This document shows, piece by piece, positions 12,675-44,206 of a DNA stretch of 64,000 bases. The stretch covers positions 5,148 through 69,147 of the forward strand of contig CAZYBC010000004.1 in assembly GCA_964645645.1 (NCBI GenBank), given 5' to 3'. The notes beneath the pieces were generated by a model that was not told where the DNA came from, made no database searches, and was given only the letters and a program-made list of their open reading frames with translations. The translations under genes and the position numbers were made by a program. Numbering within the stretch: the stretch's first letter is position 1; the number at the start of each line of letters is the position of its first letter. The DNA is from an uncultured Pseudomonadales bacterium (GTDB lineage Bacteria; Patescibacteriota; Microgenomatia; UBA1400; PJMF01).

Positions 12675-12709
12675 ACCTGATTTTTTTAAAAGTTAGGTTA
12701 TAAAAAAGC

Positions 12710-21414: not shown

Positions 21415-22681
21415 TGTCCTCTCTAGCAGGTTCTTTTATTAATATACCTTCATGTCTAGCTTCGAAAGTTTTTTCGGCCTCCTCATCAAAGTTAATTGGA
21501 ATTTCATTAACAAATCTTTGAAAAGTATCAGCAATCAATGTGATGTTATTATTTGTTTGATCACTAATTTTTTTGTTGAACATCGACACAACTTCTTGAG
21601 AAGATTTTTCGTCAGTTATTTTTGGTGATACTATTGCTAATTCGAAATTGAGATTAGACTCCAATGCTTCTAAAACCGCTCGATTGATATGTAGATCACT
21701 AAAACTATAGCCGATAACGAGCAAAACGGTATTTTCCTTTCTTAACGTCTGCTGAAACCTTGACATCATTTCAAAAAATGGCATTTGATAGCTTTGCTCG
21801 AATTTATGATTACTTGGGGGAATTATCATCGGATCATCGCTTGGTGTTTGGAGTCGTATAACTTGCGCTTTGTCTTCTGATCCTTCCCAATCTAAAGAAC
21901 CATGAAGTTTGAATAGTTGAAACACTTTTTCCTCATAATTTTCCTGGTCGTGAATTCTGTGATGTTCTCGTTTGACAATATCTAAGTCGAAATTTGAACC
22001 ATGAAAGACGGGTTTTCTAGTAAATGAAAACCCATCAACAATTGTGGCATTAATCATTTCACCTGCTTGCTCAAATAAAGTATCGTAATTCAATGTATAT
22101 AGCTGTAATCTACGTTTGTTTGAACTGCGAGCAGATATGACACTTTTTAAAAATTTCTTATGTGGTGAATTATCATGTAAAAATAAATTGCATTCACTTT
22201 TAATCGTTTTTATTATTGATTGCTTGACTTCGATGCATAATGATACATTTTCTTTTGTTTCTTGTCGTATATCGTATTCATTAGCTGTAGAATACATCTC
22301 AAGTTTGCTAATGAATCGCTCAAGCTGAAAATTATCTTCTTTTTCATTTAACAAATTTTGAAGAGCAGACACCTTCTTTTCATCAATATTTTTTTTGCAT
22401 TCAACCCAAATTTGCCCAACAGTTTTACCAGTATATTTGGTAGATGTTGTATCTAGGCTCTTGCCTTTTTTATCTAAAGTGATGGATGTGCCAGCTCCAG
22501 TTAATACCACAAAGTTGTCAGCCAACAGCCACTCTTTTAATTTTTGAGATATTTCTTGATATGCTAATTTTATACTCGACTCATCAATATAAGTAGAAAC
22601 ACCATCTGTTAATTTTACTTGGGCTTTTGAATTAGCTTTAATGCCAGTACTTGATTTGATCAGAGATAGAGTATCTCCCAT
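21389..22681 (-). CDS. SIR2-domain protein (NAD+-consuming effector of the SIR2-HerA defense system)
   Basis: Sirtuin-fold motifs VVLTGAGTSI (GAGxS), YTLNYDTLFE (TxNxD) and FKLHGSLDW (catalytic His-Gly). Paired with herA. Confidence 0.7.
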   Translation of the reverse strand: MGDTLSLIKSSTGIKANSKAQVKLTDGVSTYIDESSIKLAYQEISQKLKEWLLADNFVVLTGAGTSITLDKKGKSLDTTSTKYTGKTVGQIWVECKKNIDEKKVSALQNLLNEKEDNFQLERFISKLEMYSTANEYDIRQETKENVSLCIEVKQSIIKTIKSECNLFLHDNSPHKKFLKSVISARSSNKRRLQLYTLNYDTLFEQAGEMINATIVDGFSFTRKPVFHGSNFDLDIVKREHHRIHDQENYEEKVFQLFKLHGSLDWEGSEDKAQVIRLQTPSDDPMIIPPSNHKFEQSYQMPFFEMMSRFQQTLRKENTVLLVIGYSFSDLHINRAVLEALESNLNFELAIVSPKITDEKSSQEVVSMFNKKISDQTNNNITLIADTFQRFVNEIPINFDEEAEKTFEARHEGILIKEPAREDIEDDGVPF

Positions 22682-22713
22682 ATATTCCTCACTATCATTT
22701 GTTAACTATTTAT

Positions 22714-24165
22714 TTAACTCGCTTTCACCAACGATGCCTCCAATTCCTCGAATTGCTCTAAGGCATTACGAAGGTTTTCGGTAATTTCAGCAAGTAATAT
22801 CTCTGGCTCAGGTAGGTTTTCTAAATCTTCAAGCGATTCATCTTTAAGCCAAAAAATGTCCAAGCTCGTATTGTCACGCTTTATCAATTCGTCGTAAGAA
22901 AACATTTTGAAACGGTTGGTTTCAGAGCGTTCATGGCGATTGGTGGGGTTGTAGCAAGCAATGAAGTCCTCAAGGTCTTTTAAGGTCATCATATTTTGTT
23001 TTAAGGTGAAGTGTTTATTGGTTCTAAGATCGTAAAACCAAACCTCTTTTGTCCAAGGGTTTTCACTAGCTGGCTTTTTATCAAAAAAGATCACATTAGC
23101 CTTGACTCCATTGGCGTAAAAAATCCCAGTCGGTAATCGTAGGATGGTATGGACATCATAGTCATGCAGTAGCTTCTTGCGTATCGTTTCACCCGCGCCT
23201 GCTTCAAATAGTACATTGTCAGGAACTACCACCGCAGCACGACCACCAATTTTTAGTAGTGTTTTGATGTGTTGTAAAAAGTTTAATTGTTTGTTGGAAG
23301 TAGTCGCCCAAAAGTCTTCTCGCTCATAGGTTTGTTGTTCAGATTCAACCTCTCCAGCGGTATTGGTAATTTTAATACTGCTTTTTCGCCCGAAAGGTGG
23401 ATTAGTTAATACCAAGTCGAATCTATCGCCAGGGTCAGAAATAAGGCTATCTCCTACAGTTACAGGGCTGTTTTCACCGCCTATGCCATGCAAGAACAAG
23501 TTCATAGCACACAGTCTGGCGGTATTATCGACAATATCCCAGCCTTTAAAGGTGTTATTTCGTACAAACATCTGTTGGTCGATATCAAGCTTATGGTGTT
23601 CGTTTAGGTATTCATTAGTTGCTAGGAAAAATCCACCGGTACCACAAGCCGGATCGCACACCGTTTGGCCTGGTTCTGGTCGCATAACCTCCACCATAGC
23701 TCGAATTAAAGCTCTAGGGGTAAAGTATTGCCCAGCTCCGCTTTTGGTATCTTGGGCATTTCGTTCAAGCAAACCTTCGTAGATTTCACCTTTAACGTCT
23801 ACATCTAAGCCCATCCAAGTTTCACCATCGATCAAACTAACCAATCTTTTTAGTTTTGCAGGGTCTTGAATACGGTTTTGTGATTTACGGAAAATTAGGC
23901 CAAGTAAACCGCCTTCTTTTGAAAGCTCAAGCAAAATATGGCGATATTGTGCTTCAAGGTCAGTACCGTTGAGTTTAATTAAACTAGCCCAATCTAAACC
24001 TTCTGGGATTATTGAGGCTCTTTTGGTTAGCTTTGTTTGTTCATCAGCCATTTTGAGGAATAGAAGATAGGTAAGCTGTTCGACGTAATCGCCATAGCTT
24101 ACTCCGTCATCCAACAAAACAGTGCAAAATCCCCAAACTTTATTTACGATATTTGATTTTGTCAT
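22714..24165 (-). CDS. hsdM: Type I restriction-modification N6-adenine DNA methyltransferase HsdM
   Basis: Motif I VCDPACGTGGFF, motif IV LTNPPFG, HsdM N-terminal domain. Confidence 0.9.
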   Translation of the reverse strand: MTKSNIVNKVWGFCTVLLDDGVSYGDYVEQLTYLLFLKMADEQTKLTKRASIIPEGLDWASLIKLNGTDLEAQYRHILLELSKEGGLLGLIFRKSQNRIQDPAKLKRLVSLIDGETWMGLDVDVKGEIYEGLLERNAQDTKSGAGQYFTPRALIRAMVEVMRPEPGQTVCDPACGTGGFFLATNEYLNEHHKLDIDQQMFVRNNTFKGWDIVDNTARLCAMNLFLHGIGGENSPVTVGDSLISDPGDRFDLVLTNPPFGRKSSIKITNTAGEVESEQQTYEREDFWATTSNKQLNFLQHIKTLLKIGGRAAVVVPDNVLFEAGAGETIRKKLLHDYDVHTILRLPTGIFYANGVKANVIFFDKKPASENPWTKEVWFYDLRTNKHFTLKQNMMTLKDLEDFIACYNPTNRHERSETNRFKMFSYDELIKRDNTSLDIFWLKDESLEDLENLPEPEILLAEITENLRNALEQFEELEASLVKAS

Positions 24166-25307
24166 ACTAATTTCCCTTCAAAAGCTTGTTTTAAAATTGA
24201 TTGCTTAAGTTGATTGGTTTTTATTTTTGTCATTTGTAATAAGTTATTCAAATACGCTACTTTCGAAGATATTTCTTCATATTCTAAGTATGCCTGTTCA
24301 ACTGTTTTTCTTTCTGGTACCGGCACACATATTCTTGCAAGAGTTGATTGACTAATAGTGTTTTGCCCGGCCGATGACACCTTGTTTAGCTGAACAAACT
24401 TTCTCATCTTCGAAGTATTCATATACATCTGTACCCACTCAGCTAGATAAGGTTGTTTTAATCGAAATCGAATAAAATGATCACAGAATGCAATATCACC
24501 ATCTAGCCTATTACATAAAATCATTCGTCCAACAAAATTAGTACTCCCGTTAACACGGATGCACAATAAATCGTTTTCAGATAATTTATATTTTTCAATT
24601 TCGTTTTGATCTAATAAAATTGATCTTGTTTTTGTTAAATCTAATTTTTGGTCACTAATATCTGCCAACCTAACAACAACAGTATTTATTCCTGTTGTCC
24701 CAGAACGTTTGCTAATACCATTTTGAGATAGTTCAAATAATTCAGGAAATGTAATCAAATTTGAACTTGGTTGAACATTGTTAAACAATCTTTCAAGCCA
24801 TGAAGCTCTATATGTTTCTGTTTCTATAATTAATTTTTTTATTTCACCTATATTTACATCAATCACTGAAAACAGCTCTTCAATTTTATCGACGATTTTT
24901 TGTTGGTCATCTATTGGAGGGAGTGGAATTTGTAAGGGTGACAAATTAGTCCGAGTAATTTGCGGCTGTGCTGAACCTGAAATTACTTTTGAAAAATCAG
25001 AGCCTATCAAAGCGTATTTTAAAAACAACTTATTAAGGTTATCAGTTTTTGGTTTTGCAACCATTGAATTACCTGTAATCCACGAAAACGCTTCACTAAA
25101 ATTTATCGTTCCACAAGTTGCCCCACGACAAGTAATACAAACCTGTTCATCTTCATGATTGTATTGGTCATAATATCCTATGACGCCATTAGCGCCATAA
25201 ACCTTATATTTCCCATATTTTAAAATTTGCTTTGATGTAATAGTTTTGGGTTGGTATAAATCACACACATCCCCCAAACTTACTTTTTTATAAATACTAT
25301 TTGTCAT
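24162..25307 (-). CDS. hsdS: Type I R-M specificity subunit HsdS (two target-recognition domains)
   Basis: 381 aa with a two-TRD architecture and conserved central and C-terminal helical repeats. 4-nt overlaps with hsdM and hsdR. Confidence 0.8.
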   Translation of the reverse strand: MTNSIYKKVSLGDVCDLYQPKTITSKQILKYGKYKVYGANGVIGYYDQYNHEDEQVCITCRGATCGTINFSEAFSWITGNSMVAKPKTDNLNKLFLKYALIGSDFSKVISGSAQPQITRTNLSPLQIPLPPIDDQQKIVDKIEELFSVIDVNIGEIKKLIIETETYRASWLERLFNNVQPSSNLITFPELFELSQNGISKRSGTTGINTVVVRLADISDQKLDLTKTRSILLDQNEIEKYKLSENDLLCIRVNGSTNFVGRMILCNRLDGDIAFCDHFIRFRLKQPYLAEWVQMYMNTSKMRKFVQLNKVSSAGQNTISQSTLARICVPVPERKTVEQAYLEYEEISSKVAYLNNLLQMTKIKTNQLKQSILKQAFEGKLV

Positions 25308-28012
25308 ATCACTAAATAACTATTCAATTCATTTGTAATCTGCTCTAGTTGCCCGCCAAACACCTCATGAGCCTTAAAGATACCACCCCTATCTCTGAAT
25401 GGAGGTAACTCAAAACTAGTGATTTCTCCATTAAGCTGAATTGAGCCATTGATTGCCACAAAGTCTTTAATCATTTTAAGCCAAAAAAGTTGATCGTCAG
25501 AAAATTGCATACCTTTGGCATGAGTATCATCCAGCCATTTTTGGAATCGCTCTTCAACTGTAGTGGGGAATGGTTCGAGGTCTTGGGATTTATCTACCGC
25601 AAATCGGACTAAGGAAACAATGTTAGTTAACACTCGATCTGGCCTGGCATTTCTGACCTTTGATTTATACAGCTCTCGATATGCATTCCATAGCTGATCA
25701 TTGGTGAATCTGACATTGGCATGAAGCAACCTATCTCGAAGTTCCTTAATTTCTTGGAAGGTCAAAGCCTGTTTTTTGTACGGCTTGTTAAAGATAATTT
25801 GCAAGGCAGTAATTTCATCTTGATTTTGTTTGATGTACTCCTCAAAACTTTGGACTAATTCTTGTGGGGCGATTGGTTCGGGCTTCGGAACGTCAATCGG
25901 ATTGTCTGGGGATAGGTCAATCACTATTTCATTGCGTTGTTTAATATCGAGCATTAACTGTCTAAAGTCGGGATTATCGAAATAATTTAGAGCCTCTTGT
26001 TTCTGTTGTTGCTTTTGCTCATCAGTGCCAGCTTTGTCAGGGTCGATCACATCTAAAAGTTCGTGAGCCACTTGTTTTAAGGTAACTCCATTATTGGCTT
26101 GTTGTAGTTCGTCTTTATCGGAATCAGATAATGATTGTTCAAATTTGGAAATACGACCAGCCAGAGAGGCAATCCCATCATCATCAATGGTTCTTAGGGC
26201 TGCACTTTCAAGCAAGGATTTGAATGACACAAATGGTTGACGCTCAAGAGTACGAGAATCAGTTTTTACGCTTTCAGTTACCCCAACAGCATCAAAAATT
26301 ACAAATCTGTTTTTGTAATCTGCATCAGGTGTGACAGCTTTAAGGTCATCCTCGCCAATGGTACGAGTCCCTCGACCCTTCATCTGCTCAAAATAAACTC
26401 GGGATTTGACATCACGCATAAAGATCAAGCACTCAAGGGGTTTGATGTCGGTACCAGTCGAAATCATATCAACCGTAACGGCTATACGTGGGAAATATGA
26501 ATTGCGGAAACTTTGAATTAAATCTTCGACGTTTTCGCCTGTTCGGTAGGTAATCTTTTTTGCAAACTGATTTCATTTACCAAATACTTCACGCACGATA
26601 TGAACAATCTCCTCTGCATGGTTATCATCTTTGGCAAAAATCAAAGTTTTGGGAACAGTTTCACGATCAGGGAAAATATCAGGCAACCAGTTTTTGAATA
26701 CTCGTATAACAGTTCTAATCTGATCGGGGGCAACTACACTTCGATCAAGCTGACTAGCTTCATAGGTTAAATCTTCATCTAATTGCTCCCATCTAAGTTT
26801 TCTAGTTTGACGATCACGAACATCAACAAAAGTGCCTTGATTGATGGTATTACCTTGCTCACCAATTTGAGTTTTGATGCGGTATACGTCGTAACCAACG
26901 TTAATTCCATCAGCTACAGCACGTTCATGAGAATACTCCATGATGAGATTGCTATTGAAAAAGCCTACCGTATGTTTTGATGGCGTGGCAGTTAATCCTA
27001 TTAGAGTAGCGTCAAAATACTCAAGGACTTGTCGCCAAAGGTTATAAATAGAGCGATGGCATTCGTCGGTTACAATAAAGTCAAAGGTTTCGATAGGTAG
27101 TTTAGGATTGTATTCAACTGGTGCATTATCTTCGTAACTAAAAGCAGGTGGATTATCAAATTGTGAACCTTCTTCCAATGTTTCATCAAAATCTTGATTT
27201 CCTGAAAGAATTGAGTACATGCGTTGGATGGTGCCAATGCAAACTTTACTAACCGGATCAATGCTGGGGCTTTTAAGATGCTGAACGTTGTATAGCTCGG
27301 TAAACTTGCGGCCATCATCGGGAACGGTAAACTTTTGGAATTCTTTGAGTGTTTGTCTGCCCAAGTTGCCACGATCGACTAAAAATAAAATACGTTTGGC
27401 TTTGCCATATTTAAGCAATCGGTAAATAAACGAAGTAGCAGTAAAAGTTTTACCACTACCTGTGGCCATTTGAAGTAAAGCTCGGGGATCGTCTTTGGCC
27501 AATGATTTTTCAAGATTGGTGATAGCCTCAATCTGACAATCACGAAGGCCAACCACGTTTAATTCTGGGAATTTTTGCAAACGACCTCTGAGGGTTGAGT
27601 CATCTTGCACCCATTCAAGTAATGTTTCTGGTTTATGGAAGGCGAACAAGCGTCTGGATCTAGGTTGTGGATCACGTTCATTTCGAAAAAAAGTTTCTGT
27701 TCCAGTACTTTCGTAAGCAAATGGTAGGTTTTCATCCACCTTGGGTAAATTTGGATCGGTACTGGTAATGTACTTGCCAGATTGTTCGGCAACACCGCTA
27801 AGGGTAGTGCCTGCCGCTTTGGCTTCGACTACACCCACTGCTTTTCGATCAACAAAAAGCATGTAATCGGCTGGTCCTTTTTGGGTTGGAAATTCTCTTA
27901 CAGCAACACCTAATTTTGCTCCTAGATTTAATCTGGAGCGATCTTGAATATCCCATCCTGCCTGGATGAGTAATTTATCGATATCTTGTCGTGCTATTTC
28001 TTCTGGTGTCAT
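25304..28012 (-). pseudogene. hsdR: Type I restriction endonuclease HsdR, interrupted by a single in-frame TGA at 26573-26575
   Basis: N-terminal part 26573-28012 has QMATGSGKTFTA and DECHR. C-terminal part 25304-26572 continues in the same frame straight after the TGA (...REVFGK*NQFAKKITYRTGENVEDL...RIAVTVDMISTGTDIKP...QMKGRGTR) with no other stop or frameshift. Confidence 0.8.
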
Positions 28013-31882: not shown

Positions 31883-32083
31883 ATGTATAATTGGAACATA
31901 GACACTACTAAATTAAAGAAAAATCCTGATGAATACGCTAAATTTATTTTAGAACAAAGAATTAATTTTGGACTAAATGGTAAAAAACTTTCATTAAAAA
32001 ACCTTAAAAAATACTGGAACGAGTTAGATATTGATTTGGCAAAAAAAAATTATTTACAAAAAATTATATGGCCTCAATCTTAA
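31883..32083 (+). CDS. Small hypothetical protein overlapping the start of the downstream nucleotidyltransferase gene. It could be a cognate antitoxin.
   Basis: 66-aa ORF with a 16-nt overlap with 32068-32724. Confidence 0.3.
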   Translation: MYNWNIDTTKLKKNPDEYAKFILEQRINFGLNGKKLSLKNLKKYWNELDIDLAKKNYLQKIIWPQS

Positions 32084-32724
32084 CTAAACAACAAAAATTA
32101 GCTTTAAAACTTATTGCACAAACGCAACTTGCTTCATTTTTTTATTTTTCTGGTGGAACAGCTTTAGCACATTATTATTTACGACATCGCAAATCAGAAG
32201 ATTTAGATTTTTTTTGCGAAAATGAATTTGATCCACAACAAATTACGATCATTTTAAAAAGTATTCAAAATAAACTCAAGTTTAATGAATTTGATTTTCA
32301 AAATAGTTTTAACCGAAATTTATATTTTTTAAAATTTGATGATAATTATGTTTTAAAACTTGAATTTACTTATTATCCTTTTCAACAAATTGAAAAACCT
32401 TCAAAAAAAGATAATTTATTAATAGATAGTCCAATTGACATCGCTACTAACAAATTATTCACCATTGTCCAAAAACCCAGAGGTAGAGATTATTATGATT
32501 TGTATTATTTAATTGATAAATATGGCTACCAAATTGAAGATTTACGCATGAAAGCTAAGATTAAATTTGATTGGCATATTGATCCATTACAATTAGCTTC
32601 TAGGTTAAATGAAGTTGACCTAAAATTAGATGATCCAATTCTTTTAAAAAAAATCAATAAGAAAAAATTGATTAATTTTTTTCAAAATGAAGCCATAAAA
32701 TTAAGCAAAAAAATTTTAGATTGA
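32068..32724 (+). CDS. AbiEii/DUF1814-like nucleotidyltransferase (third copy)
   Basis: FSGGTALAHYYL...RKSEDLDFF matches the GGTAL...RxSxDLDF signature shared with 39125-39823 and 43443-44201. Confidence 0.55.
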   Translation: MASILTKQQKLALKLIAQTQLASFFYFSGGTALAHYYLRHRKSEDLDFFCENEFDPQQITIILKSIQNKLKFNEFDFQNSFNRNLYFLKFDDNYVLKLEFTYYPFQQIEKPSKKDNLLIDSPIDIATNKLFTIVQKPRGRDYYDLYYLIDKYGYQIEDLRMKAKIKFDWHIDPLQLASRLNEVDLKLDDPILLKKINKKKLINFFQNEAIKLSKKILD

Positions 32725-32754
32725 GATAATTTTTACACCACCTTTTTTATTTAC

Positions 32755-32897
32755 TTTGCCATTCCGCCTGCGGCGTATTTAATTAGGAAATTAGTAATAC
32801 ACTTTGTAAACCATTCAAACGAAGCTTGTTGCGTTTAATTAAGCTGTTGATGTAAACCATTCCACCTGTGGTGTGTTTACAAAGCCTATGATCAATA
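32755..32897 (-). repeat. Tandem array of three REP-like units of the same family as 5455-5670, in reverse orientation, at the 3' end of the second FtsX-like permease gene
   Basis: Reverse complement gives aaatacgccgcaggcggaatgg (32759-32780), a degenerate middle copy (32808-32836) and ttgatcataggctttgtaaacacaccacaggtggaatggtttac (32852-32897). The last is near-identical to 5455-5500 except ccgcgagcgg becomes ccacaggtgg. Confidence 0.75.
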
Positions 32898-32900
32898 GAC

Positions 32901-34922
32901 CTATTCATATCTCAACGCATTTAATGCTGAAATTTTGGTGGCTCTTTTAGCAGGATAATGACCAGTTAAAATTCCCACAATGGTTGATAAAAACATTACA
33001 GAAATAACAAAAGTAAAAGGAATTACTGAGACATCAACTAAACCAACTCCCTTTACCACAGCTACACTGGATAAAGCCAAACTCAATAATTTTCCTGCGC
33101 TATAACCAATCATCAATCCCAATAAGCCCCCATAAAAACCCATAATCATCGATTCGGTTAAAAATAATTCTTTTACTTCTGCAGATTTCATGCCCATTGC
33201 TTTCATCAAACCTACTTCACGGGTTCTCTCTAATAAAGACACCGTTAAAGTATTAAACATCCCCAAAGTAGCAACTGCTAAAGCCACCATCCCCACTATC
33301 CCTAAAACTAATCTAAAAGTAGCAAACAAATTATTAATCTGAGCAACTGTATCAACTACTGAAACTGTCCCATAACCCATTGATTCAATCGCCGATCTAA
33401 CATTAGCCAACTGATTTTTTTCTTTGACAATAATTTTAATTTGAGACATGCGATTAATGCCCAAAGACCTCAATTCCACAAAAGGAACATAAACTACAGG
33501 CGTATCTTCTTCTGGAGTAACTCCTACAATTTTGTAAGTGGTGGGGGCAGATTCAATTCTTTCTGTTTCTCCCTCAACCAAATTACCAATTGCCACAAAA
33601 GTTAAAGTGATTTCTTGACCGACAGCTTGATTTTCAGCTAAACCGATGACATTTAACACTGCTTTGTTAACTACTGCTTCTCGTAAAGAATTTTTATTGA
33701 GCTCTACAACCTTAATTTTGTTATTTATGGGCATATTAGCCGAACTACTAGCCAAATTAACAATTGGCAAAGTGCCATCAGCTTTAGTAACGCCTAACAC
33801 TTTGGCTGACTCATTGACTGTAATTGGAGAAAGCCAAGCCGTATAACCCTCTTTTATTAATTGTTTGCCAGCTTCATCTCTAAGAGGAATATATTGCCCA
33901 TCTTCACAATCTTGGTCAACCACGGCTAAAGCATTTACCTCGGTTTTTTCTGCCTCAGTTTTAACGCAAGTTTGATTTTTCCACAAAGTAAATTCTGCCT
34001 TAATCCAAAAAGCAGTGTTTGTTGGTAAACTATCTTCTGGACCAGCATAATCGGCATAATGATCACCTAAAACTTGACTGCCATTTTGAGTCTCAGCTAC
34101 TTTTTTAGTGTAACCTAATACCGAACTTTGAGTAGAGGATTCACTACGCACTCTCAGCCACTCACCCTCTTTAATACTAAAAGTTAAAAGCTCAGCGCTA
34201 TCACTAGCTTGCTGAGTTTGACCAGTAATATCAGTAGTAATAATCTTGCTTGATTTTGGTGAAGTAGAACTAACTAAATCATCACTCACAAAAATTTGGC
34301 CGTGAATGGGCTGAATAGCTGAGCTTTTTAAATAATCGGTGGTAACTCCATAAACTGCTAAATCTGAAACAGAATTTTGATAAGAAATTTTACCAACAAC
34401 ACTGATTAAGGGGAGTGTAGCCTTAATTTGTGGCATATCTTTTAAACTAGCCAGCAATGATTCATTTAAAGCAGTTTCTTCACTTAACCCAGGTAAAATT
34501 TCTGCTTGTTCAAGCTCTTCCAACCGAGCCACTCGTGAAGTAACTAAATTTTCTAAACCATAACCAACTGAGACTAAAAAAACAATAAAAGCAATACTAA
34601 TGGCCATCCCGCCAATCGTGACCATGGTTCTGGTTTTTTTAACCTGCATATTGCGGAATGACAATTCAATTAAATAAGATCGGCTTAAAGTTTTTTGCTG
34701 ATTTTTTTCTAAAAAATCCAAAGTTTTTTCATAAAATTTATCAAATTGACCGGCCAAAGAGAGAACAGGTTTTAACCAAAAATAATCTTTTTTAATAGCT
34801 AATAAAAGATTAAAAACAATCTTAAGAGAATATAAAACCACCATTAACATAAAGCTGGCAAGATTTTTAAATCTAAATAACAACATCTTTAACCAGTTGT
34901 TTATTTTTTTCCAAATGATCAT
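32901..34922 (-). CDS. ABC transporter permease, FtsX/MacB-like (paralog of 3444-5450)
   Basis: Same architecture and C-terminal FtsX TM block (LLERTREVGLMKAMGM) as 3444-5450. Confidence 0.8.
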   Translation of the reverse strand: MIIWKKINNWLKMLLFRFKNLASFMLMVVLYSLKIVFNLLLAIKKDYFWLKPVLSLAGQFDKFYEKTLDFLEKNQQKTLSRSYLIELSFRNMQVKKTRTMVTIGGMAISIAFIVFLVSVGYGLENLVTSRVARLEELEQAEILPGLSEETALNESLLASLKDMPQIKATLPLISVVGKISYQNSVSDLAVYGVTTDYLKSSAIQPIHGQIFVSDDLVSSTSPKSSKIITTDITGQTQQASDSAELLTFSIKEGEWLRVRSESSTQSSVLGYTKKVAETQNGSQVLGDHYADYAGPEDSLPTNTAFWIKAEFTLWKNQTCVKTEAEKTEVNALAVVDQDCEDGQYIPLRDEAGKQLIKEGYTAWLSPITVNESAKVLGVTKADGTLPIVNLASSSANMPINNKIKVVELNKNSLREAVVNKAVLNVIGLAENQAVGQEITLTFVAIGNLVEGETERIESAPTTYKIVGVTPEEDTPVVYVPFVELRSLGINRMSQIKIIVKEKNQLANVRSAIESMGYGTVSVVDTVAQINNLFATFRLVLGIVGMVALAVATLGMFNTLTVSLLERTREVGLMKAMGMKSAEVKELFLTESMIMGFYGGLLGLMIGYSAGKLLSLALSSVAVVKGVGLVDVSVIPFTFVISVMFLSTIVGILTGHYPAKRATKISALNALRYE

Positions 34923-35701
34923 TGCTGTAATTTTTCTCCTCGTTTTGTATTATGAATATTTTTTTTAAAATATTCACTGGGATTTGTAGCTTGAGAAATA
35001 ATTTTGCCATCAAACATTTCTAAACTCCGAGAAGCATAATCTAAATATTCCAAATCGTGAGTCACCATAATCACTGTTTTACCTTGCCGATGTAAATTAG
35101 CCAGCAATTTCATCAACTCTTGACCAGATTTAAAATCTAAATTACCAGTTGGCTCATCCGCAATGATTAAATCTGGATTAGTCACCATCGCTCTAGCTAA
35201 AGCCACGCGTTGTTGTTGTCCGCTAGATAACTCTGTAGGGATATAATCTTGCCAATCGGTCATGCCTACTAAATCTAAAACCGCCAAAGCCTTTACGGCA
35301 GCCTCTTTGGCTTTCATGCCGCTTAAACGCAATGGAAACATCACATTTTCTTTAACCGTTAAAGCTTTTACCCAGTTGGGCTGCTGATAAACCATGCCAA
35401 TGTAATATTTTCTTAAATCAGATAGGCCATCTTCATCAAGGCTATCATATAAAGATTGACCTTTAAATAAAACTTTGCCATGAGTAGGTTTTTCCAAGCC
35501 CAATAAAATATGCAATAAGGTAGATTTACCACAACCTGATGGCCCAAAAATTACTAAAAATTCGCCAGCTTTTACGACTAAATTAATATCCATTAAAATA
35601 GGCGTGGCTTGAGCTTTCACAAAAAAAGTTTTATCTATATTAATCGCTTCAAGCACAGGGCGATTAGATTTTGCTGGTAGAGTCTTATTCATTTCAATCA
35701 T
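34919..35701 (-). CDS. ABC transporter ATP-binding protein (paralog of 2704-3447, roughly 55 percent identical by eye)
   Basis: [37 protein letters not shown]. Confidence 0.9.
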
Positions 35702-35704
35702 TGA

Positions 35705-38700
35705 TTATTCCTTAATAATTCGCAAAAAACTAAACGCTGAACTTAAATTTTCCATCACTAAATCAAAAGCTGAGCGAGTGGCTTTGGGCGCAATCGTAGC
35801 CATATCAATACTGAGCGCTTCATTCCCAGCTGCGTCTTTAGAAATAGCTCTTAAGTGATAAACCTGGCTAGGCGTAAGACCAGAAATAATTACCGAGTGA
35901 TTAAGAGTTAAATTGCCATCTTCTTGAGTTTTTTGACCATAACTTGTCCCAGTGCCTTCTCCATATTCTACTTGGGTAGTAGCTGGCTCATCAGTCGTCC
36001 AAGAGACTACCAGTTGAGCTTTTACTTGACCAGCCGCAAAACCAACTGGCGGAATAGTGCCACCAATTACTTTCAACCCAATAATTTGTGATGGTCGAGT
36101 ATCAGTAGCCGTCGTAAACACAAAAGTATCAGAAGAAGCTTCATTGCCAGCTTTATCCAAGCCTTTTACTAGTAGATTATATTGTTGAGAAGGCAAAAAG
36201 CCAGAAATAGTCATCTCTCGATTACCAGCCAACAACTCCACATCAACTTGATCTTTAGCCAGACTGGGTTGACCAACTGGATAATAGCTAACAATTGCTG
36301 AAGTCGGCGTATTGACTGTCCAACTAACTAAAATGGTAGTTTGAGAAGTGCCGGCTACTTCTTGCAAACTCACATTCGTAATCCTTGGTCTAGGCATGGT
36401 AGTAAAAGTTAAAGCCTGACCTTCATACTCATAACCTTCGCTATCAAAAGTATTAATTTTGTAATAATAAGTAGTGCCATCTTCCAGACCAGATAACTCA
36501 GTGGTCACTATATTAGCCGTGGTAGAAGTAGCCACCTCTTTTAAACCACCAAAGGCCGTACTTTTACCATAATAAATTTTAACGCTACTTGCTCCACTAA
36601 CAGTATATTTAATGATGGCACTGCTTAGGCCAATTTGAGTAGCTTGAGGATCTGTGACTGAAGGCGCCGCTTGAGTGGTAAAACGCTTTTCACTACTTGT
36701 ACCAGTGTTACCGTCTTCATCAGTCCACTTCACTTTATAATAATAGACTGTACCTGGAGACAAATTAGTTAAATTAATAGTGTGGTCAGTCACTTGAGAA
36801 GCATTAGATGGTTCTTCGGTAAAATAACTTCCTGAACTAGTGCCAAAAGACACTTTAGAATCACTGTTTCTACTAGTTGTCCAAACAATTTTAGCTTTTC
36901 TGGTAGTCACCGAGCTTTCACTGGGGCCAGAAGTTAAACTAGCCGCCTCAGTATAAGTGCCTTTGGGAGTAAGAGTAACCGCATTGGTATAGGAAGGACT
37001 AGCCGTTGATTCGCTAGAAGTATCACTTGTGCCAATCCGCCAATAATACTGCCTTGATTCGCCAACAGTATCCACATAAGCTGTCCCGCTGGTGGTAGTA
37101 ACAGTAGTCCAAATAGAACCATCGGTTGACCTTTGCACTGTATAGGTTAAGGTACCAGTGCCTTGGTAAGTAGGATGATTCCAAGCTAAAGAAGCCCGCC
37201 ATAAAGAAGCAGATTTAATTGATGCATCAGCCACACTTAAATCTTTGGCTGGATCTGGCATAGTAGAGTTTAAAGTAAAAGTGCCAGCAATATAGTTACT
37301 AGGAGAATAGTTATCTCCGTCATCCACCGCCACTACTCGCACGGTATTGCTCCCTTTTTGCACGCCAGCTAATTCGCTAGCTGATAAACTGGTGCCAGTA
37401 ATAGGGATATAAGTGGCTGAATTAGAAGTTAAAGTGCTCAAAGTTGAAGGCGGAGTAGTATTAATCATGTAGTAATAACTAGCAATCGTTTGCCCATCCG
37501 CCGGCGTAGCCGCTGGCCAGGAAAGAGCAAAAGAATTGCTCGTGCTAGTGGTTGGCGTAATCGTCACCACTGCATCACCAGCAAAAACTGGAGCATCTCC
37601 TCCATAAGCCAAATTCCCAGTTCTATAAGTAGAAGGGGAAGAAACATTGCCAGCTAAATCAACCGTTCTAAAAGAAATAATATTATCACCAATCACTAAA
37701 TAATCACCATCACGAGCTTGAGTTAAATAAAGCGGTTGCTCATAAGCAGCGGGGATATAAGAAATGCCCAATAAAGCATGCGTGCTGGTGCCAAGCCAAT
37801 CACCACTATTATTAAGCATGTATTGCCACCCCAAAACTGCCGAGTGGACATCACTACTAGCTGCACTGCCACTGGTAGGCCAAGAAAAATTCATGTCCAC
37901 AATGTTATTAAATGTTCCAGAAGCAGGATTAATATAGGACACATTAGTCGGCGCAGTATTATCAAAAATAAAACTAAAAGTGGCCATACTGGTGTTATAA
38001 GTATTACCAGCATTATCAATGGCTTTAATATTCAAATGATAAGTGGTGCCATTCACAAAACTACTGGATAAATAATCACCAGCAGATAAATCTAAAACCT
38101 CACTAGCCACAATAAACATACAATCAGTGCCAAGCGTAGAAACTGGAGAATTGGTGAGCAGGCCCGCGGTACCAGATTGCGTTAAATGATTGCCAGGATC
38201 AGCACTAGCTGAAGTACCAAGATACAAACAATAACCTTTTAAGTCTGATCCACCCACATTATCAGCCCCAGCACTCCAGGTAAAATAAGGTTCAGTACTA
38301 TTAGAATAACCAGCCTCTGGAATAGTGTGGCCAGCCACGGCTGACTTCATCACAATGGCGGAGGCATTAGTGGCAGGCTCAGTAATATCAGTGCTGTAGT
38401 CAGCAATACTCACCCCAGGGCTAGTAAAATTTAACCAGCCCACATCTTCACTAAAAGCATAACCACTTAAAGTGCCAGTACTCAGGTTAATCGTTACCGC
38501 ACTATTGTAATTGCTGAAATCAATATAAGCGCCAGTTGCTACCACTAAGGCTTTACCAGCTAAAATCCCGGTATCTGGATCATAAGTGACTGGCCCTTGC
38601 GGATTATCAGTTTCACCAAAAGCCACCCAACCCACATCTTCACTAAACACATAGCCCTCAAAATTGTGGGCAATCATATTAATCCGGACATTAGAATTGT

Positions 38701-38872
38701 AATTATCAAAATCTAAAAAAACACTAGTGTTTGCTGCTACGGCCTTACCAGAGATAGCAAAGCTAGAAGCATAAACCAAAGGATGAAAACTTTTTAGCAC
38801 TAAAAGACCAGCCAGCACTAAACTAACTAACGGCAAAAACTTCTTGGCAGAGTTTAGCTTAAACTTTAACAC
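35705..38872 (-). CDS. Large secreted Fn3/Ig-like-repeat surface protein (1055 aa) with a signal peptide. Paralog of 1-2700.
   Basis: N-terminal signal peptide. The C-terminal 450 aa align with the 25-2700 protein (SWTTSRNSDSKVSFG, LSPGTVYYYKVKWTDEDGNTG). Confidence 0.75.
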   Translation of the reverse strand: MLKFKLNSAKKFLPLVSLVLAGLLVLKSFHPLVYASSFAISGKAVAANTSVFLDFDNYNSNVRINMIAHNFEGYVFSEDVGWVAFGETDNPQGPVTYDPDTGILAGKALVVATGAYIDFSNYNSAVTINLSTGTLSGYAFSEDVGWLNFTSPGVSIADYSTDITEPATNASAIVMKSAVAGHTIPEAGYSNSTEPYFTWSAGADNVGGSDLKGYCLYLGTSASADPGNHLTQSGTAGLLTNSPVSTLGTDCMFIVASEVLDLSAGDYLSSSFVNGTTYHLNIKAIDNAGNTYNTSMATFSFIFDNTAPTNVSYINPASGTFNNIVDMNFSWPTSGSAASSDVHSAVLGWQYMLNNSGDWLGTSTHALLGISYIPAAYEQPLYLTQARDGDYLVIGDNIISFRTVDLAGNVSSPSTYRTGNLAYGGDAPVFAGDAVVTITPTTSTSNSFALSWPAATPADGQTIASYYYMINTTPPSTLSTLTSNSATYIPITGTSLSASELAGVQKGSNTVRVVAVDDGDNYSPSNYIAGTFTLNSTMPDPAKDLSVADASIKSASLWRASLAWNHPTYQGTGTLTYTVQRSTDGSIWTTVTTTSGTAYVDTVGESRQYYWRIGTSDTSSESTASPSYTNAVTLTPKGTYTEAASLTSGPSESSVTTRKAKIVWTTSRNSDSKVSFGTSSGSYFTEEPSNASQVTDHTINLTNLSPGTVYYYKVKWTDEDGNTGTSSEKRFTTQAAPSVTDPQATQIGLSSAIIKYTVSGASSVKIYYGKSTAFGGLKEVATSTTANIVTTELSGLEDGTTYYYKINTFDSEGYEYEGQALTFTTMPRPRITNVSLQEVAGTSQTTILVSWTVNTPTSAIVSYYPVGQPSLAKDQVDVELLAGNREMTISGFLPSQQYNLLVKGLDKAGNEASSDTFVFTTATDTRPSQIIGLKVIGGTIPPVGFAAGQVKAQLVVSWTTDEPATTQVEYGEGTGTSYGQKTQEDGNLTLNHSVIISGLTPSQVYHLRAISKDAAGNEALSIDMATIAPKATRSAFDLVMENLSSAFSFLRIIKE

Positions 38873-39124
38873 TAAGATAAGAATAGCAAAAAAGAGGCTG
38901 TGATAGCAAGCTGAAAAACTGTTTTGTTTTATCTGGCAATAAAGTCTAAATAATTATCTTTATTTATTGTTTGAAAGTGTGAATTTGGATAATTATCTGT
39001 CCAAGCTTGTGGTAACTTTGCAGTATTTTTACTTAACTTAAATTCAAAACAAACTGAATTAGCGTTAATTCCGCTTGTCTATGATCCGAAATAGCGCCAA
39101 TTCCGCTTATGGAGCTATTTAAAA

Positions 39125-39823
39125 TTATTTTTCATTGCTTTCTTTTCGCAATTGCAATAAAGAAATAGTCTCTTCTCGCAACTTAGCTCTAGCCCAATCC
39201 TTCTGCCCTTCAGTCAATAATTCACCTGACCCATCCAAAATATTGCGGTTATTCATTTTTTCTAATTTTTTAATACATTTTTCTACTAACGTATCGAAAG
39301 GCATCTCTGCTCGCTGTTCTACAATTTTTTTATTAATTAAAAAACGATTTTTCAAAAAAAACCAAACATCATAAATGTCTCGGCTAGTTTTGCCCATCCG
39401 TTCATACATAGCCATTAATTTATGAGCAAACATATCCTCAGCAACCATCACCAGCATCGACATCCCAAGATAAGTTTTTATTTCATATTTTGAGCCAAAA
39501 TGTCTACGATTGATTTCTATCTTAATATTGTGAGCCTTATCTTGATATGAAAGTAAGCAAAATAAATTATGACGTTTTTTATATGAATCTTTAAGTTGCC
39601 CGTATTTTTTCACAATCTCTACCACTCGCTCAAAAACTAAAGCTTCTTTGTCATCATCCAATAAATCAAAATCAAGATCAACTGAAAATCGATCTAAGCC
39701 ATAAAACATTAACAAAGCTGTTCCGCCTTTAAATCCCAAAAAAGGTGAAATAGTGGTATCAGAATAAATATTTTTCAGAATTTGAAACAAAATAGTTTTA
39801 TGAATTACAATATCAAATGTCAT
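39125..39823 (-). CDS. abiEii: AbiEii-family nucleotidyltransferase toxin (type IV TA / abortive infection)
   Basis: FKGGTALLMFYGLDRFSVDLDF (GGTAL...RFSxDLDF). 4-nt overlap with the upstream abiEi. Confidence 0.7.
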   Translation of the reverse strand: MTFDIVIHKTILFQILKNIYSDTTISPFLGFKGGTALLMFYGLDRFSVDLDFDLLDDDKEALVFERVVEIVKKYGQLKDSYKKRHNLFCLLSYQDKAHNIKIEINRRHFGSKYEIKTYLGMSMLVMVAEDMFAHKLMAMYERMGKTSRDIYDVWFFLKNRFLINKKIVEQRAEMPFDTLVEKCIKKLEKMNNRNILDGSGELLTEGQKDWARAKLREETISLLQLRKESNEK

Positions 39824-40401
39824 AAATTAGATACCTTTTTAAATAAAGACTGCACTTTTTTTTCTAGACTTTTATTTTCATATAATGGTAATAATTGAAA
39901 TATTTTTTTCCAATCAAGCGCTCTTAAATTATCAAAATGATAATCAGTGCTATGATACAAAATGTCCAAAAATGATCTTTCTTTGGTGGCAATAGAAACA
40001 CCATTTGTTTGTTGAATTCCAATGGAATTAGCTAAGATAGCACTTTTTACTTTTCGATATGAATAAATTTGCCCATCAATAATAATTTTTCTACTTAAAT
40101 AAGACGCAACCGTAATCACTGTTTGATATTGGAAGATTAAACCTTCTTTTGCCAAAACAGTTTCAAAACTAACATAAGAGGGTAAAAATATTCTAGTGGC
40201 TAGTTCTAATTTGTTATAATTTTTGTCTTTGACGTAGATGCCTTTGCGCAATCGATAAAGCTGGCCTTTTTTAACATAATAATTTAAACGAACTCTAGCA
40301 GATGTTGTATCATCATCCTGCCACAATAAAGCCAAGTCTTTTAAAGTAAAGACTGTTTTATTTAATCTTAAAATAATATCTAAATAATTACCTTTTTGCA
40401 T
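39820..40401 (-). CDS. abiEi: AbiEi-family antitoxin / transcriptional regulator
   Basis: Size, position upstream of and overlapping abiEii, and an N-terminal wHTH-like segment. Confidence 0.6.
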   Translation of the reverse strand: MQKGNYLDIILRLNKTVFTLKDLALLWQDDDTTSARVRLNYYVKKGQLYRLRKGIYVKDKNYNKLELATRIFLPSYVSFETVLAKEGLIFQYQTVITVASYLSRKIIIDGQIYSYRKVKSAILANSIGIQQTNGVSIATKERSFLDILYHSTDYHFDNLRALDWKKIFQLLPLYENKSLEKKVQSLFKKVSNL

Positions 40402-40719: not shown

Positions 40720-40865
40720 AGCCAATTATTGGTCTGGCACGACTAACACCACTAATACTAATAACGCTTGGTACACTAATCTAAGCAATGGCAACACGAA
40801 CAACAATACCAAGACTACAGCTACATATTCATTTCGGTGTGTGTTTTAGTCTAAGGACTTTTAAA
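40720..40865 (+). other. DGR template repeat (TR)
   Basis: 146 bp matching the reverse complement of 42462-42607, with differences only at 13 TR adenines. Located immediately upstream of avd. Confidence 0.92.
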
Positions 40866-40872
40866 GAAAACT

Positions 40873-41229
40873 ATGTTTTATCAAAGCATGCCACTTTATC
40901 TAGAGCTGATTAACTTACTCAAGTTAGAATATAAGCTAAATAAAAATATTGCCAAACAATATCGTTATTCTTTGGGAGAAAAAATTATTGATTTAACCTG
41001 GCAAATGCTGGATTTATTTATTGAAGTTCAACATTTAAGCAACATTTCAAACTCTAATAAAACAGCTCTCATTAAAACAATGATTGCTGATCATGAAAAA
41101 TTGCAATTACGGCTCAGATTTTTAGGAGAATTGCAACTAATTTCTCTTAAACAACAAGCTCAATTGCTTGCTCATACAACGGCTATTGGCAAAATGCTGG
41201 GCAGCTGGCTAAAACATGTCCCAAAATAA
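40873..41229 (+). CDS. avd: DGR accessory variability determinant (Avd, four-helix-bundle family)
   Basis: 118 aa, helical, bAvd-like layout. Lies directly between the TR and the RT and overlaps the RT by 14 nt. Confidence 0.75.
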   Translation: MFYQSMPLYLELINLLKLEYKLNKNIAKQYRYSLGEKIIDLTWQMLDLFIEVQHLSNISNSNKTALIKTMIADHEKLQLRLRFLGELQLISLKQQAQLLAHTTAIGKMLGSWLKHVPK

Positions 41230-42400
41230 AACTAGCACAATTTTTACTTATCAAAAAATTCTTAAAGCTTATTTTTTCTGCCGAAAACATAAGCGTCAAG
41301 CTCTGAGTGCTTTGGCTTATGAACTAAACTTTGAGAAAAATCTTGGTCAATTGATAGAGCAGCTACAAAATAAAACCTATCAACCCCAAAGTGCGGTTTA
41401 TTTTATTGTTACCAAACCAAAACCTAGGGAAATTTTTGCCAGTGAATTTGGAGATAGAATTACCCATCATTTGCTTATTAACGAAGTAGAAAAAATCTGG
41501 GAAAAAGACATTTTCATCACTGATTCTTATGCTTGTAGAAAGGGCAAAGGCCACCATTTTGCCCTCCAAAGAGTGAAAAACTTAGCTAAAAAGTATCGAT
41601 ATTATGGCCAATTTGATATTAGTAATTTTTTCTCTAGTATTGATAAAAATATTTTATTTGAAATTTTTGCCAAAGTTATAAAAACACAAGCAAAACCAGA
41701 ATTCTGGAAAAATAATCTTTTATGGCTAACTAAAATAATTATTTTTTCTGATCCCACCCAAGATTTTTTTTATAAAGGCAATCAAAAATTAAAAAAATTA
41801 GTGCCAGCACAAAAGTCATTATTTAATCAAGAACCAGAAATTGGCTTGCCGATTGGCAATCTAAGTAGCCAATTTCTGGCTAATGTTTATCTTAATGAAC
41901 TAGATCAATTTGTAAACAAAAAGCTTAAAATAACCGCCTACGCTAGGTACGTTGATGACTTTTTAATCTTTAGTAATTCAAAAACTAAAGTTATTCAAGC
42001 CAGAAATCAAATTAAAGAATTTTTAAAAACTGAACTCAAATTAACCTTGCATCCTAAAAAACAGCAAATTCAAACTACTTGGCATGGCATTCCTTTTGTT
42101 GGCTACTTTATTAAGCCAGGTGGAGCGCAAGTTAGAAGAAATGTGGTAAAAACTCTTAAAAATAAATTGTTTTATGCCCAAAAACTCAAAAATTTACCCC
42201 AAATCATTACCTCTTTAAATTCTTATTATGGCCATTTTATTCATGCTAATTCATATCGCTTAAGAAAACACCTTTTTAAACAACATCTAAGTCAAGAATT
42301 TCATCAGTATCTGTGGGTAAAAGGTCATTACCAATCTTTTTGGCCAACTAAAAAGTTTTTTGCTAAAGGAAAAAATCTTTCCTTTAGCAAAAAAAAATAA
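41216..42400 (+). CDS. DGR reverse transcriptase
   Basis: RT motifs SYACRKGKGHHFAL (motif 2-like), LPIGNLSSQFLANVYLNELD (motif B') and YVDDFLIF (YxDD). 394 aa, typical for DGR RTs. Confidence 0.9.
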   Translation: MSQNKTSTIFTYQKILKAYFFCRKHKRQALSALAYELNFEKNLGQLIEQLQNKTYQPQSAVYFIVTKPKPREIFASEFGDRITHHLLINEVEKIWEKDIFITDSYACRKGKGHHFALQRVKNLAKKYRYYGQFDISNFFSSIDKNILFEIFAKVIKTQAKPEFWKNNLLWLTKIIIFSDPTQDFFYKGNQKLKKLVPAQKSLFNQEPEIGLPIGNLSSQFLANVYLNELDQFVNKKLKITAYARYVDDFLIFSNSKTKVIQARNQIKEFLKTELKLTLHPKKQQIQTTWHGIPFVGYFIKPGGAQVRRNVVKTLKNKLFYAQKLKNLPQIITSLNSYYGHFIHANSYRLRKHLFKQHLSQEFHQYLWVKGHYQSFWPTKKFFAKGKNLSFSKKK

Positions 42401-42411
42401 AAAAACTCAAA

Positions 42412-42463
42412 CCCGCCTTTGGCGGGAATAAAAACCTAAGTTTCAGATTCTGAAACTTAGGTT
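42412..42463. terminator. Two adjacent hairpins (CCCGCCtttGGCGGG and AACCTAAGTTTCAGAttcTGAAACTTAGGTT) between the convergent RT and target genes
   Basis: Perfect stems read directly. The second hairpin lies immediately 3' of the VR on the target sense strand. Confidence 0.6.
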
Positions 42464-42607
42464 TAAAAGGCCTTAGACTAAAACACACACCGAAATGAAT
42501 ATGTAGCTGTAGTCTTGGTAAGGTTGTACGTGACGCCACTGCTTAGATGAGTGTACCAAGCGTTATTAGTAACAGTGGTGGAAGTCGTGCCAGACCAATA
42601 AGTGGCT
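42462..42607 (-). other. DGR variable repeat (VR), covering the last 42 codons and the stop of the target gene
   Basis: See TR. VR codons T,S,V,H,S,V,Y,L correspond to TR AAT/AAC codons. Confidence 0.92.
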
Positions 42608-43371
42608 GCACTATTACTTAAAAACTCAGCTGAGCCATCTATATAGGCCATCATCAACTCTTTTTGATAAGGCAAGCGCCAACCAGTACCTAAAGCTTCA
42701 CAGCCGGTTTTACTACTAATTAGTTTTACACACTTACAAGCCACATCGCCATGAGCAACACAAGAGCCAGGATTCTCCGCTGAACCAGGCTGAGCACAAT
42801 TATTCGCCGTAAACCAATTCGCCGCACTACTAATTCTAGCCGACCAGACTAAGCCAGTGTTGGCATCCTGCTTTTCTGCTTGAGCATTACTAGTATTACA
42901 GTAAGTATTCGCTTCATTACAAGTGGTCCAGCTAGCCAGATAACTCCCAGTTGGTAAAGTAGTAGCATCATGAATCCCGCCCACACTCTGTGGATAATCT
43001 GCATTTCCGCCATTATATGTACCATTAGCCTTAGCATCATTAAAAGTTCCTCTGGCAGCCGCATTAATTCTATTCCAGTAAGCCCCCCAATCTCCCCAGG
43101 ACCCAGCGGCCGTACTACCATAATCTAAAGTTGTTAAAGCATCAGCGAGTTGTTTTAAACGAGAATCAGCCTCAGATTCTGGAGAAGAACCTGTCTGTTC
43201 GGCGCGAATAATTTTAATTTGCCGGTTAAGACTCAGCCCTACCAAAACTAAAAACCCCACGGACAAAACTAACTGCCACGAAAAAATTTTTTGGCTTCTT
43301 ACAAATAGCAAGCGGATTTTTTGAAAAAATTTCATACTAATAATATGACGGATTAGAGAATGAGGTGTCAA
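42478..43371 (-). CDS. DGR target protein: secreted or membrane-anchored DUF1566 / C-type-lectin-fold (FGE-like) protein with the VR at its C-terminus
   Basis: GWRLPYQKELMMAY (DUF1566 WRLPT.EL motif), N-terminal hydrophobic anchor, C-terminal ...YSFRCVF typical of DGR CLec-fold targets. Confidence 0.85.
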   Translation of the reverse strand: MTPHSLIRHIISMKFFQKIRLLFVRSQKIFSWQLVLSVGFLVLVGLSLNRQIKIIRAEQTGSSPESEADSRLKQLADALTTLDYGSTAAGSWGDWGAYWNRINAAARGTFNDAKANGTYNGGNADYPQSVGGIHDATTLPTGSYLASWTTCNEANTYCNTSNAQAEKQDANTGLVWSARISSAANWFTANNCAQPGSAENPGSCVAHGDVACKCVKLISSKTGCEALGTGWRLPYQKELMMAYIDGSAEFLSNSAATYWSGTTSTTVTNNAWYTHLSSGVTYNLTKTTATYSFRCVF

Positions 43372-43433: not shown

Positions 43434-43442
43434 TACCAAGAT

Positions 43443-44201: not shown

Positions 44202-44206
44202 AGGGT

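Follow-up and report, generated by a model that had tools for sequence, protein, structure and literature searches.

The window, a term used here for the whole stretch of 64,000 nucleotides of DNA that was analysed, carries two ABC/FtsX cassettes with the same gene content, in which a large fn3-rich protein and an ABC ATPase are encoded together with a permease of the FtsX/MacB type. Both cassettes end in an array of short palindromic units, which are the subject of this analysis.

25-5450, plus strand: cassette 1, three genes
3444-5450, plus strand: permease gene of cassette 1 (Pfam FtsX and MacB_PCD)
32901-38872, minus strand: cassette 2, three genes
32901-34922, minus strand: permease gene of cassette 2 (Pfam FtsX and MacB_PCD)

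The two permeases are 38% identical at the protein level, which agrees with the original prediction that their identity is only moderate and corrects its figure of about 45 percent divergence to approximately 62%. At the 3' ends of the coding regions, identity between the cassettes is 69% over the final 150 nt and 80% over the final 60 nt. Proteins homologous to the permeases, and to an AbiEii protein described below, come from organisms named as Patescibacteria or as candidate phyla of the Microgenomates group. In more distant relatives, the orthologue of cassette 2 adjoins genes of plasmid or conjugation type (contigs L012, 5347-8031, and L013, 5364-6268), which include Replic_Relax and a TraG/VirD4-like coupling protein, and the ABC/FtsX cassette itself may ride on mobile DNA.

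Between and around the cassettes lie three whole or partial type IV toxin-antitoxin (AbiEi/AbiEii) modules and a complete diversity-generating retroelement, arranged as follows.

32068-32724: AbiE module or part, third of three
39125-40401: AbiE module or part, with an AbiEii gene at 39125-39823
43443-44989: AbiE module or part, with an AbiEii gene at 43443-44201
40720-43371: diversity-generating retroelement, complete
40720-40865: template repeat of the retroelement
40873-41229: bAvd gene
41216-42400: retroelement reverse transcriptase
42401-42477: two strong hairpins between convergent stops of the retroelement
42462-42607: variable repeat, 146 nt, 91% complementary to the template and overlapping the 3' end of the target gene
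42478-43371, minus strand: retroelement target gene, with an Lcl_C/DUF1566 domain

The AbiEii protein encoded at 43443-44201 is 85-91% identical to proteins of many different genomes of the Microgenomates group, and its promoter region is conserved as well; these comparisons suggest frequent horizontal transfer of the AbiE module. A search with the AbiEi protein returned only contigs that are 100% identical to the window. Elsewhere, a defence-island-like stretch (19663-28012) begins with a HerA-like ATPase and a SIR2_2 protein (19663-22681) and continues with a type I restriction-modification system, made up of HsdM (22714-24165), HsdS (24162-25307) and an R subunit that is apparently split (25304-26467 and 26573-28012). 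Two adjoining paralogous GH26 glycoside hydrolase genes (11571-13948), next to a cellulose-synthase-like glycosyltransferase gene, have in common a 58-nt stretch of 84% identity, and the open reading frame at 59476-60300, which encodes a coiled-coil-like protein, contains tandem 39-nt coding repeats (59545-59802; approximately five copies, 65-87% identity).

A family of hairpin units

The units were counted with a core pattern (CACCGCRAGCGGAAYGRTTTA, with at most 3 mismatches tolerated) that has 7 matches in the window, as compared with 0 in 100 shuffles. Four of these matches, all on the plus strand, lie in the tail of cassette 1 beyond the permease stop at 5450 (at 5478, 5530, 5583 and 5646), and one, on the minus strand, lies in the tail of cassette 2 beyond the permease stop at 32901 (at 32853); the other two are located on the minus strand away from the cassettes, at 43394 and 45292. 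A covariance model (R1), built from ten units and searched with its filters off, returned eight strong units and one weak unit at four loci and nothing further in the 64 kb, thereby adding to the core matches the units designated W6 and, in a degenerate state, W5b. The window holds nine units and two remnants in all, at five loci, with four units behind cassette 1 and three behind cassette 2; the first unit of each array is followed by three more in cassette 1 and by two more in cassette 2, just as had been predicted (two or three).

5452-5515, plus strand: W1, full-length, starting 2-3 nt after the stop codon of permease 1; R1 score 72.4 bits
5516-5558, plus strand: W2, decayed, with the core retained and the left arm shorter; 39.7 bits; z = -1.0
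5559-5613, plus strand: W3, decayed, with recognisable arms whose complementarity is gone; 51.9 bits; z = -0.9
5623-5676, plus strand: W4, decayed, core intact; 55.1 bits; z = +0.4
32843-32896, minus strand: W5, first unit past the stop codon of permease 2; 58.8 bits; -12.2 kcal/mol, z = -1.1
32803-32841, minus strand: W5b, strongly degenerate, inner hairpin replaced; 13 bits, E = 3.8
32745-32798, minus strand: W6, decayed, with the core kept and the right-hand TTTA lost; 55.8 bits; z = +0.6
43384-43437, minus strand: W7, full-length; 71.4 bits; -31.2 kcal/mol, z = -8.8
45282-45335, minus strand: W8, full-length, mutated; 68.1 bits; -22.4 kcal/mol, z = -5.5
39060-39115, minus strand: two probable remnants, each with AAGCGGAAT, the second also retaining GATCATAG

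W1 forms a near-perfect hairpin around the conserved apical core CACCGCGAGCGGAATG (-36 kcal/mol, z = -9.9). W2, which has an orthologue in a sister strain (by alignment to contig L016), resembles a unit of the type found first on contig L011 with its left arm shortened, and W5 matches W1 in its left arm and core and is short of ten nucleotides in its right arm (AAAGCCTATG, deleted). W7 separates the stop codon of the AbiEii gene (43443-44201) from the start of the retroelement target gene, and W8 lies in the intergenic region from which the AbiEi and UvrA genes diverge. The two remnants begin 4 nt past the stop codon of the AbiEii gene 39125-39823, upstream of cassette 2; the sequence that they share occurs 5 times in the window against an expectation of 0.63, and the whole of 39060-39115 is identical in the sister strain. 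A GATC is found at each unit junction of cassette 1 (5458, 5509, 5554 and 5620), which amounts to four in approximately 165 nt of that array, as compared with about one per 310-370 nt across the window.

Full-length units are represented by W1, W7 and W8 and by the first units of two sister-strain contigs, L011a and L016a. Such a unit is a hairpin of 54-66 nt (-22 to -36 kcal/mol, z from -5.5 to -11), in which outer arms of 20-23 nt lead into an inner TAAAY/RTTTA stem and then into a conserved, asymmetric tip (CACCGCAAGCGGAATG) that reads CA-CCG-CRRG-CGG-AATG and contains an AA bulge. When ten units are aligned, a structure of 27 pairs is filled by standard pairs in 85.6% of cells, a value that falls to 30-41% if the partners are slid by 1-3 columns, and compensatory changes on both sides are found in 18 of the 27 pairs; the observed values were reached by none of 500 shuffles. 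From copy to copy, the tip is approximately 90% conserved and the arms agree at only about 60-65%, yet within intact copies the arms pair in perfect Watson-Crick fashion (22/22 in W1, and 27/27 and 26/26 in others). Cells holding G.T and cells holding A.C are equally frequent across the units (11 each), and this strand test therefore lends no support to a constraint acting on RNA from one strand.

Most units in the arrays have lost this structure. W2-W4, W5, W5b and W6 fold like shuffled sequence (z from -1.1 to +0.6), so that the strong hairpin is gone from all three units of cassette 2, whose tail as a whole folds no better than shuffles, and three of the four units of cassette 1 likewise fold no better than shuffles. 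Deletions of about ten nucleotides contribute to the decay, one having removed part of the right arm of W5 and another, also of 10 nt, part of the core of the second unit in the sister strain.

Distribution, age and turnover

Outside the window, the family was seen only in two Logan contigs from SRR29243425 (L011 and L016), which represent the sister strain; the sequence compared in detail comprised the one window of 64 kb and a few short contigs. When 185,579 species-representative genomes were scanned with CRCCGCRRGCGGAAYGRTTTA, unrelated taxa yielded 10 single hits, as compared with approximately 9 that would be expected by chance (a hand estimate based on the degeneracy of the pattern and the size of the collection), and the one hit that was inspected, on a Peregrinibacteria contig, has GC-rich surroundings and none of the flanks of the element. 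Among JGI metagenomes, a degenerate pattern of 26 nt gave 3 hits, none with AT-rich arms and all apparently inside coding sequence of unrelated, more GC-rich DNA, and no hit was returned from the IMG/VR viral contigs. In a search of the window against Rfam, only three tRNAs pass the gathering threshold and no CRISPR repeat matches above threshold; a permissive search with the elements yielded only sub-threshold matches, mostly to hairpin models of eukaryotic miRNA precursors. To judge from these searches, the family appears to be lineage-restricted.

The first units of the two arrays are far more alike than the genes that precede them. W1 and W5 are identical at 43 of 47 nt, starting 3 nt past the stop codons, with the junctions TGA TGT|TATTGATCATAGGCTTTGTAAACACACC GCGAGC GGAATGGTTTACA for W1 and TAG GTC|TATTGATCATAGGCTTTGTAAACACACC ACAGGT GGAATGGTTTACA for W5; the alignment thereby bears out the prediction of a nearly identical element within 5 nt of both permease stops. 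The identity consists of blocks of 28 and 13 nt, has a sharp left edge, and is interrupted by four differences that all fall within six apical nucleotides.

Comparison of the permeases with their orthologues places the arrival of the family relative to the duplication that produced the cassettes. The identity matrix resolves two clades that are 38-42% identical to each other, one containing permease 1 with P0224 (97%) and P0122 (55%), and the other containing permease 2 with P0002 (77%) and P0003, P0006 and P0009 (58-60%), a structure that implies that the duplication is older than the split from the orthologues of 55-60% identity. Behind the orthologous cassettes at that level of identity, no member of the family is found at the corresponding loci: on contigs L012 and L013, a hairpin of unrelated sequence with a T-run after it lies approximately 20 nt past the stop, and L015 has only a short unrelated sequence. 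The absence of the family from these orthologues indicates that it reached both cassette tails after the duplication, and on this phylogenetic evidence we conclude that it was acquired after the paralogues split.

Turnover at the same position is evident within a much narrower range of relationship. The permease on L016 is 97% identical to that of cassette 1, and the DNA that encodes it is about 96% identical as far as the stop codon; behind it nonetheless stands a different member of the family as first unit, which is approximately 60% identical over its whole length (arms and core together) and has arms that pair perfectly with each other, and near-identity with the window resumes at the second, orthologous unit. 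On L011, which carries the orthologue of cassette 2, a third kind of first unit begins 3 nt past the stop. The slot adjacent to the stop codon is accordingly occupied by different members in different strains, and is shared by both cassettes only in the genome of the window. Because the sister strain, with a 97% identical permease, has a different member in that slot, the near-identity of W1 and W5 must be recent; it points to a recent copying event inside this genome, rather than to conservation since the gene duplication. Such copying might have proceeded by transposition, or by ectopic conversion confined to the element. The original prediction had offered a choice between recent spread of the element to this position and conservation for a function since the duplication, of which the former is favoured by these comparisons and the latter is not.

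Both Logan contigs end 69-113 nt past the stop, within the repeats. Compared with L011 and L016, the window (560-5600 and 32800-39950) shows a mosaic of identity that ranges overall from 64 to 100%, and within one operon the identity to the sister strain falls from 100% over more than 1 kb to 64-72%, which implies frequent recombination between related populations.

The units are not specific to the cassettes. Of the five loci, two or three have no relation to FtsX tails (W7 at 43384-43437, W8 at 45282-45335 and, as the third, the remnants at 39060-39115), and copies of this kind largely amount to the finding that the original prediction had itself named as its refutation; that two of five loci are nevertheless the tails of paralogous cassettes exceeds random placement (about 0.4% for both, a post-hoc estimate). 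What the loci have in common is their position relative to genes. Four of the five start 2-5 nt past a stop codon, W8 in its divergent region being the exception, and at all five the units are oriented like the gene next to them. This orientation is confounded with GC skew, so that a bias of replication and a bias of transcription are inseparable here; a function exerted through RNA would likewise be in keeping with the uniform orientation at the five loci. No unit resembling W7 is present after the approximately 90% identical AbiEii genes of other genomes. The AbiE modules that lack the element elsewhere have flanks unrelated to those of the window. Neither a target-site duplication nor a 5' target motif recurs consistently among the units, and W7 alone has a possible one (TAAATCTTG / TAAGTCTTG).

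As for an enzyme that might move the units, no transposase in the window can be linked to the family. The sole Y1 transposase (18451-18885, 144 aa) is of the IS200 type by NCBIfam, with 119.4 bits against a cut-off of 55 for NF033573 (IS200), and 39.1 bits for the REP_Tyr_transpos model NF047646, which is below the cut-off of 80; it is not flanked by units, and there are none within 10 kb. The gene has a classical upstream IS200 hairpin (18378-18413) and a stem that covers its start codon (18439-18465), both unrelated to the family, has no accompanying TnpB, and is followed by an unannotated ORF of 134 aa (18882-19286). A link to a RAYT within the window was rejected, the only Y1 gene being of the IS200 type with unrelated hairpins of its own. 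Domain searches, which covered 50 of the 61 ORFs of at least 80 aa, returned no match to a tyrosine recombinase or integrase, or to Nop, Tas or Cas proteins.

Explanations and comparison with known systems

The tails are probably composed of lineage-restricted, non-autonomous palindromic intergenic repeats, REP-like or MITE-like in nature, in a Patescibacteria (Microgenomates-type) genome. Under this explanation, a fresh unit would be a hairpin of about 60 nt whose asymmetric apical core is presumably recognised by a protein and whose arms need only be able to pair; such units would land, or be copied, just downstream of stop codons in the orientation of the upstream gene, would accumulate there into head-to-tail arrays, and would then be disabled by point mutations and by deletions of about ten nucleotides. 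Mobility or ectopic conversion is the copying mechanism that we infer, and any effect of the intact copies as terminators or in the protection of mRNA may be a by-product. Two points are not accounted for by copying of a repeat, namely the sharp edge of the W1/W5 identity and the apical clustering of the differences, which together argue against a simple conversion driven by flanking homology.

That the units are instead selected 3' RNA structures, acting as terminators without a U-tract or as barriers against 3'-5' exonucleases that both cassettes need, is unlikely, despite several observations that are in keeping with such a role. The intact copies are very stable, sense-oriented and located 2-5 nt past stop codons; the corresponding position in the more distant orthologues of cassette 2 is taken by an unrelated hairpin and T-run; a scan of the first 20 kb of the window returned 11 canonical terminators against 12 expected, showing no enrichment, and other genes there end in long AT-rich hairpins; and REPs of other bacteria are reported to serve as terminators or mRNA stabilisers (PMC3733652). 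A Rho-independent terminator, however, would require a G+C-rich hairpin with a T-run directly after it, and no such run stands behind any unit (the following bases being AATAACTTAATT, AAGTCTTGACAC and similar), nor did a terminator scan find a site in the tail of cassette 1. The reading as a canonical terminator was rejected on the missing T-runs and the lack of enrichment in the scan. The strong hairpin has moreover been lost from 3/3 units of cassette 2 and 3/4 of cassette 1, the equality of G.T and A.C cells and the purely Watson-Crick pairing of intact copies leave no strand-specific signature, W8 lies in a divergent promoter region rather than at a 3' end, and a simple hairpin would not need a conserved core. 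The related idea that the tail is ancestral to the duplication of the cassettes, and has been selectively conserved since, could draw on the alignment in register of the coding 3' ends with the first unit and on the presence of the family behind both cassettes in both strains, but is highly improbable, given that the 55-60% orthologues of each paralogue are without the family even though the paralogues are only 38% identical, and that strains with a 97% identical permease have different first units; descent of the tail from before the duplication was rejected on the basis of the orthologue comparison.

The alternative that the units are recombination sites acting as folded DNA, attC-like in principle, and marking the 3' boundary of exchanged AbiE/ABC modules, takes its appeal from the arrangement of the window. 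Every locus is at a module junction and is oriented as the genes of its module, in one case in the order AbiE-2, remnants, cassette 2, array, AbiEii-3, and in the other in the order UvrA, W8, AbiE-1, W7, retroelement target gene; many Microgenomates have the AbiE module at 85-90% identity, implying horizontal transfer, and identity to the sister strain is mosaic. The attC sites are imperfect palindromes as well (57-141 nt), located directly 3' of a gene in that gene's orientation, with arms that vary in sequence and retain their complementarity. Their layout is nevertheless the reverse of the one found here, since attC conserves the outer R''/R' boxes and varies in the centre, whereas these units conserve the tip, vary at the ends and lack the terminal RYYYAAC / GTTRRRY; the head-to-tail arrays contain no intervening genes, which is unlike the cassettes of an integron, no tyrosine-recombinase or integrase domain occurs among the scanned ORFs, and the same AbiE module is found in other genomes without such a site. 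A role of this kind is considered very unlikely.

It is scarcely credible that the arrays encode guide RNAs of the CRISPR or TIGR-Tas type, in spite of direct repeats that recur 52-63 nt apart in a genome of the candidate phyla radiation. TIGR-Tas arrays, which have been described from bacteria of the same radiation, likewise are made up of stem-loops in tandem, whose palindromic stems vary and whose loop motifs are conserved (PMC12045711). The period of the units differs from that of TIGR arrays, though, and they have a fixed core or loop of about 16 nt and no spacers, no box C/D pairs, and single copies that are dispersed around the window; no Nop-domain, Tas or Cas protein was found among the 50 scanned ORFs. 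CRISPR repeats are near-identical, 25-36 nt long and set apart by unique spacers of similar size, as opposed to units that are 68-88% alike, and the stretches between the cores are the units' own arms rather than unique spacers. Identities as CRISPR, TIGR-Tas or attC were rejected on the features that define each of those systems.

A more specific version of mobility, in which an actively targeted hairpin element has its tip recognised, on folded single-stranded DNA or on RNA, by a putative enzyme that installs or replaces a unit in the slot behind a stop codon, is quite unlikely, and is given the weight that it has because replacement is confined to a single slot, the arms pair perfectly despite their divergence, the tip is conserved and the family is present behind both paralogous cassettes. 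Targeted installation would explain the differing occupants of the slot (counted as four, in two cassettes and two strains), the perfect pairing of arms that diverge by approximately 35-40% between copies, the sharp edge of the W1/W5 identity, and the placement of units at the 3' edges of exchanged modules. If true, it would represent a system of stop-codon-proximal insertion or of cassette boundaries not yet described in bacteria that belong to the candidate phyla radiation, and if the slot-specific replacement is enzymatic, it would suggest a novel mode of hairpin recognition.

Under the preferred interpretation as non-autonomous intergenic repeats, the main consequence is one of caution: a common 3' tail behind paralogous operons should not be taken as a shared regulatory element, having arisen here by recent turnover of repeats, as the comparisons with orthologues and with the sister strain indicate. 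The family is also a source of variation between strains and of breaks in assemblies, both Logan contigs having ended inside arrays. Since the genomes of Patescibacteria are very small and compact, an active or recently active REP-like family would be a useful marker in them.

Among described repeats, the closest points of comparison are the REPs and the miniature hairpin families of other bacteria. REPs are small (20-40 bp) palindromic intergenic repeats, single or clustered, species-specific and variable between strains; most are located less than 20 nt away from the gene upstream, at its 3' end, in gaps between genes that are co-directional or convergent (PMC3733652). High copy number across a genome is a further property of REPs, and the 64 kb analysed here hold the nine units and two remnants at five loci. 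A search of one collection of papers jointly on repetitive extragenic palindromic repeats and Patescibacteria returned no related paper. The units described here are similarly palindromic, intergenic, close to the 3' end of the upstream gene, single or clustered, and variable between strains. They differ from REPs and BIMEs in being 54-66 nt long rather than 20-40 nt, in the absence of the unpaired GTAG/CGTC (with no consistent position at either foot in ten aligned units), in having the hairpin tip as their conserved part instead of the stem or its foot, in forming head-to-tail arrays rather than inverted pairs, and in having a host from the candidate phyla radiation; they differ from a REPtron in that the window contains no RAYT flanked by repeats.

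Families such as ERIC/IRU, Correia, RPE and SMAG are lineage-specific, non-coding, hairpin-forming and multi-copy, are often co-transcribed at the ends of genes, and decay through mutation, with terminal inverted repeats that are conserved between copies. The present family departs from ERIC/IRU and MITE-like elements in that its arms, although paired perfectly within each copy, agree at only about 60-65% from one copy to another, and in that no target-site duplication is established; it resembles them in consisting of lineage-specific, non-coding, multi-copy hairpins that decay, and on the whole represents an unremarkable type of element whose host is unusual.
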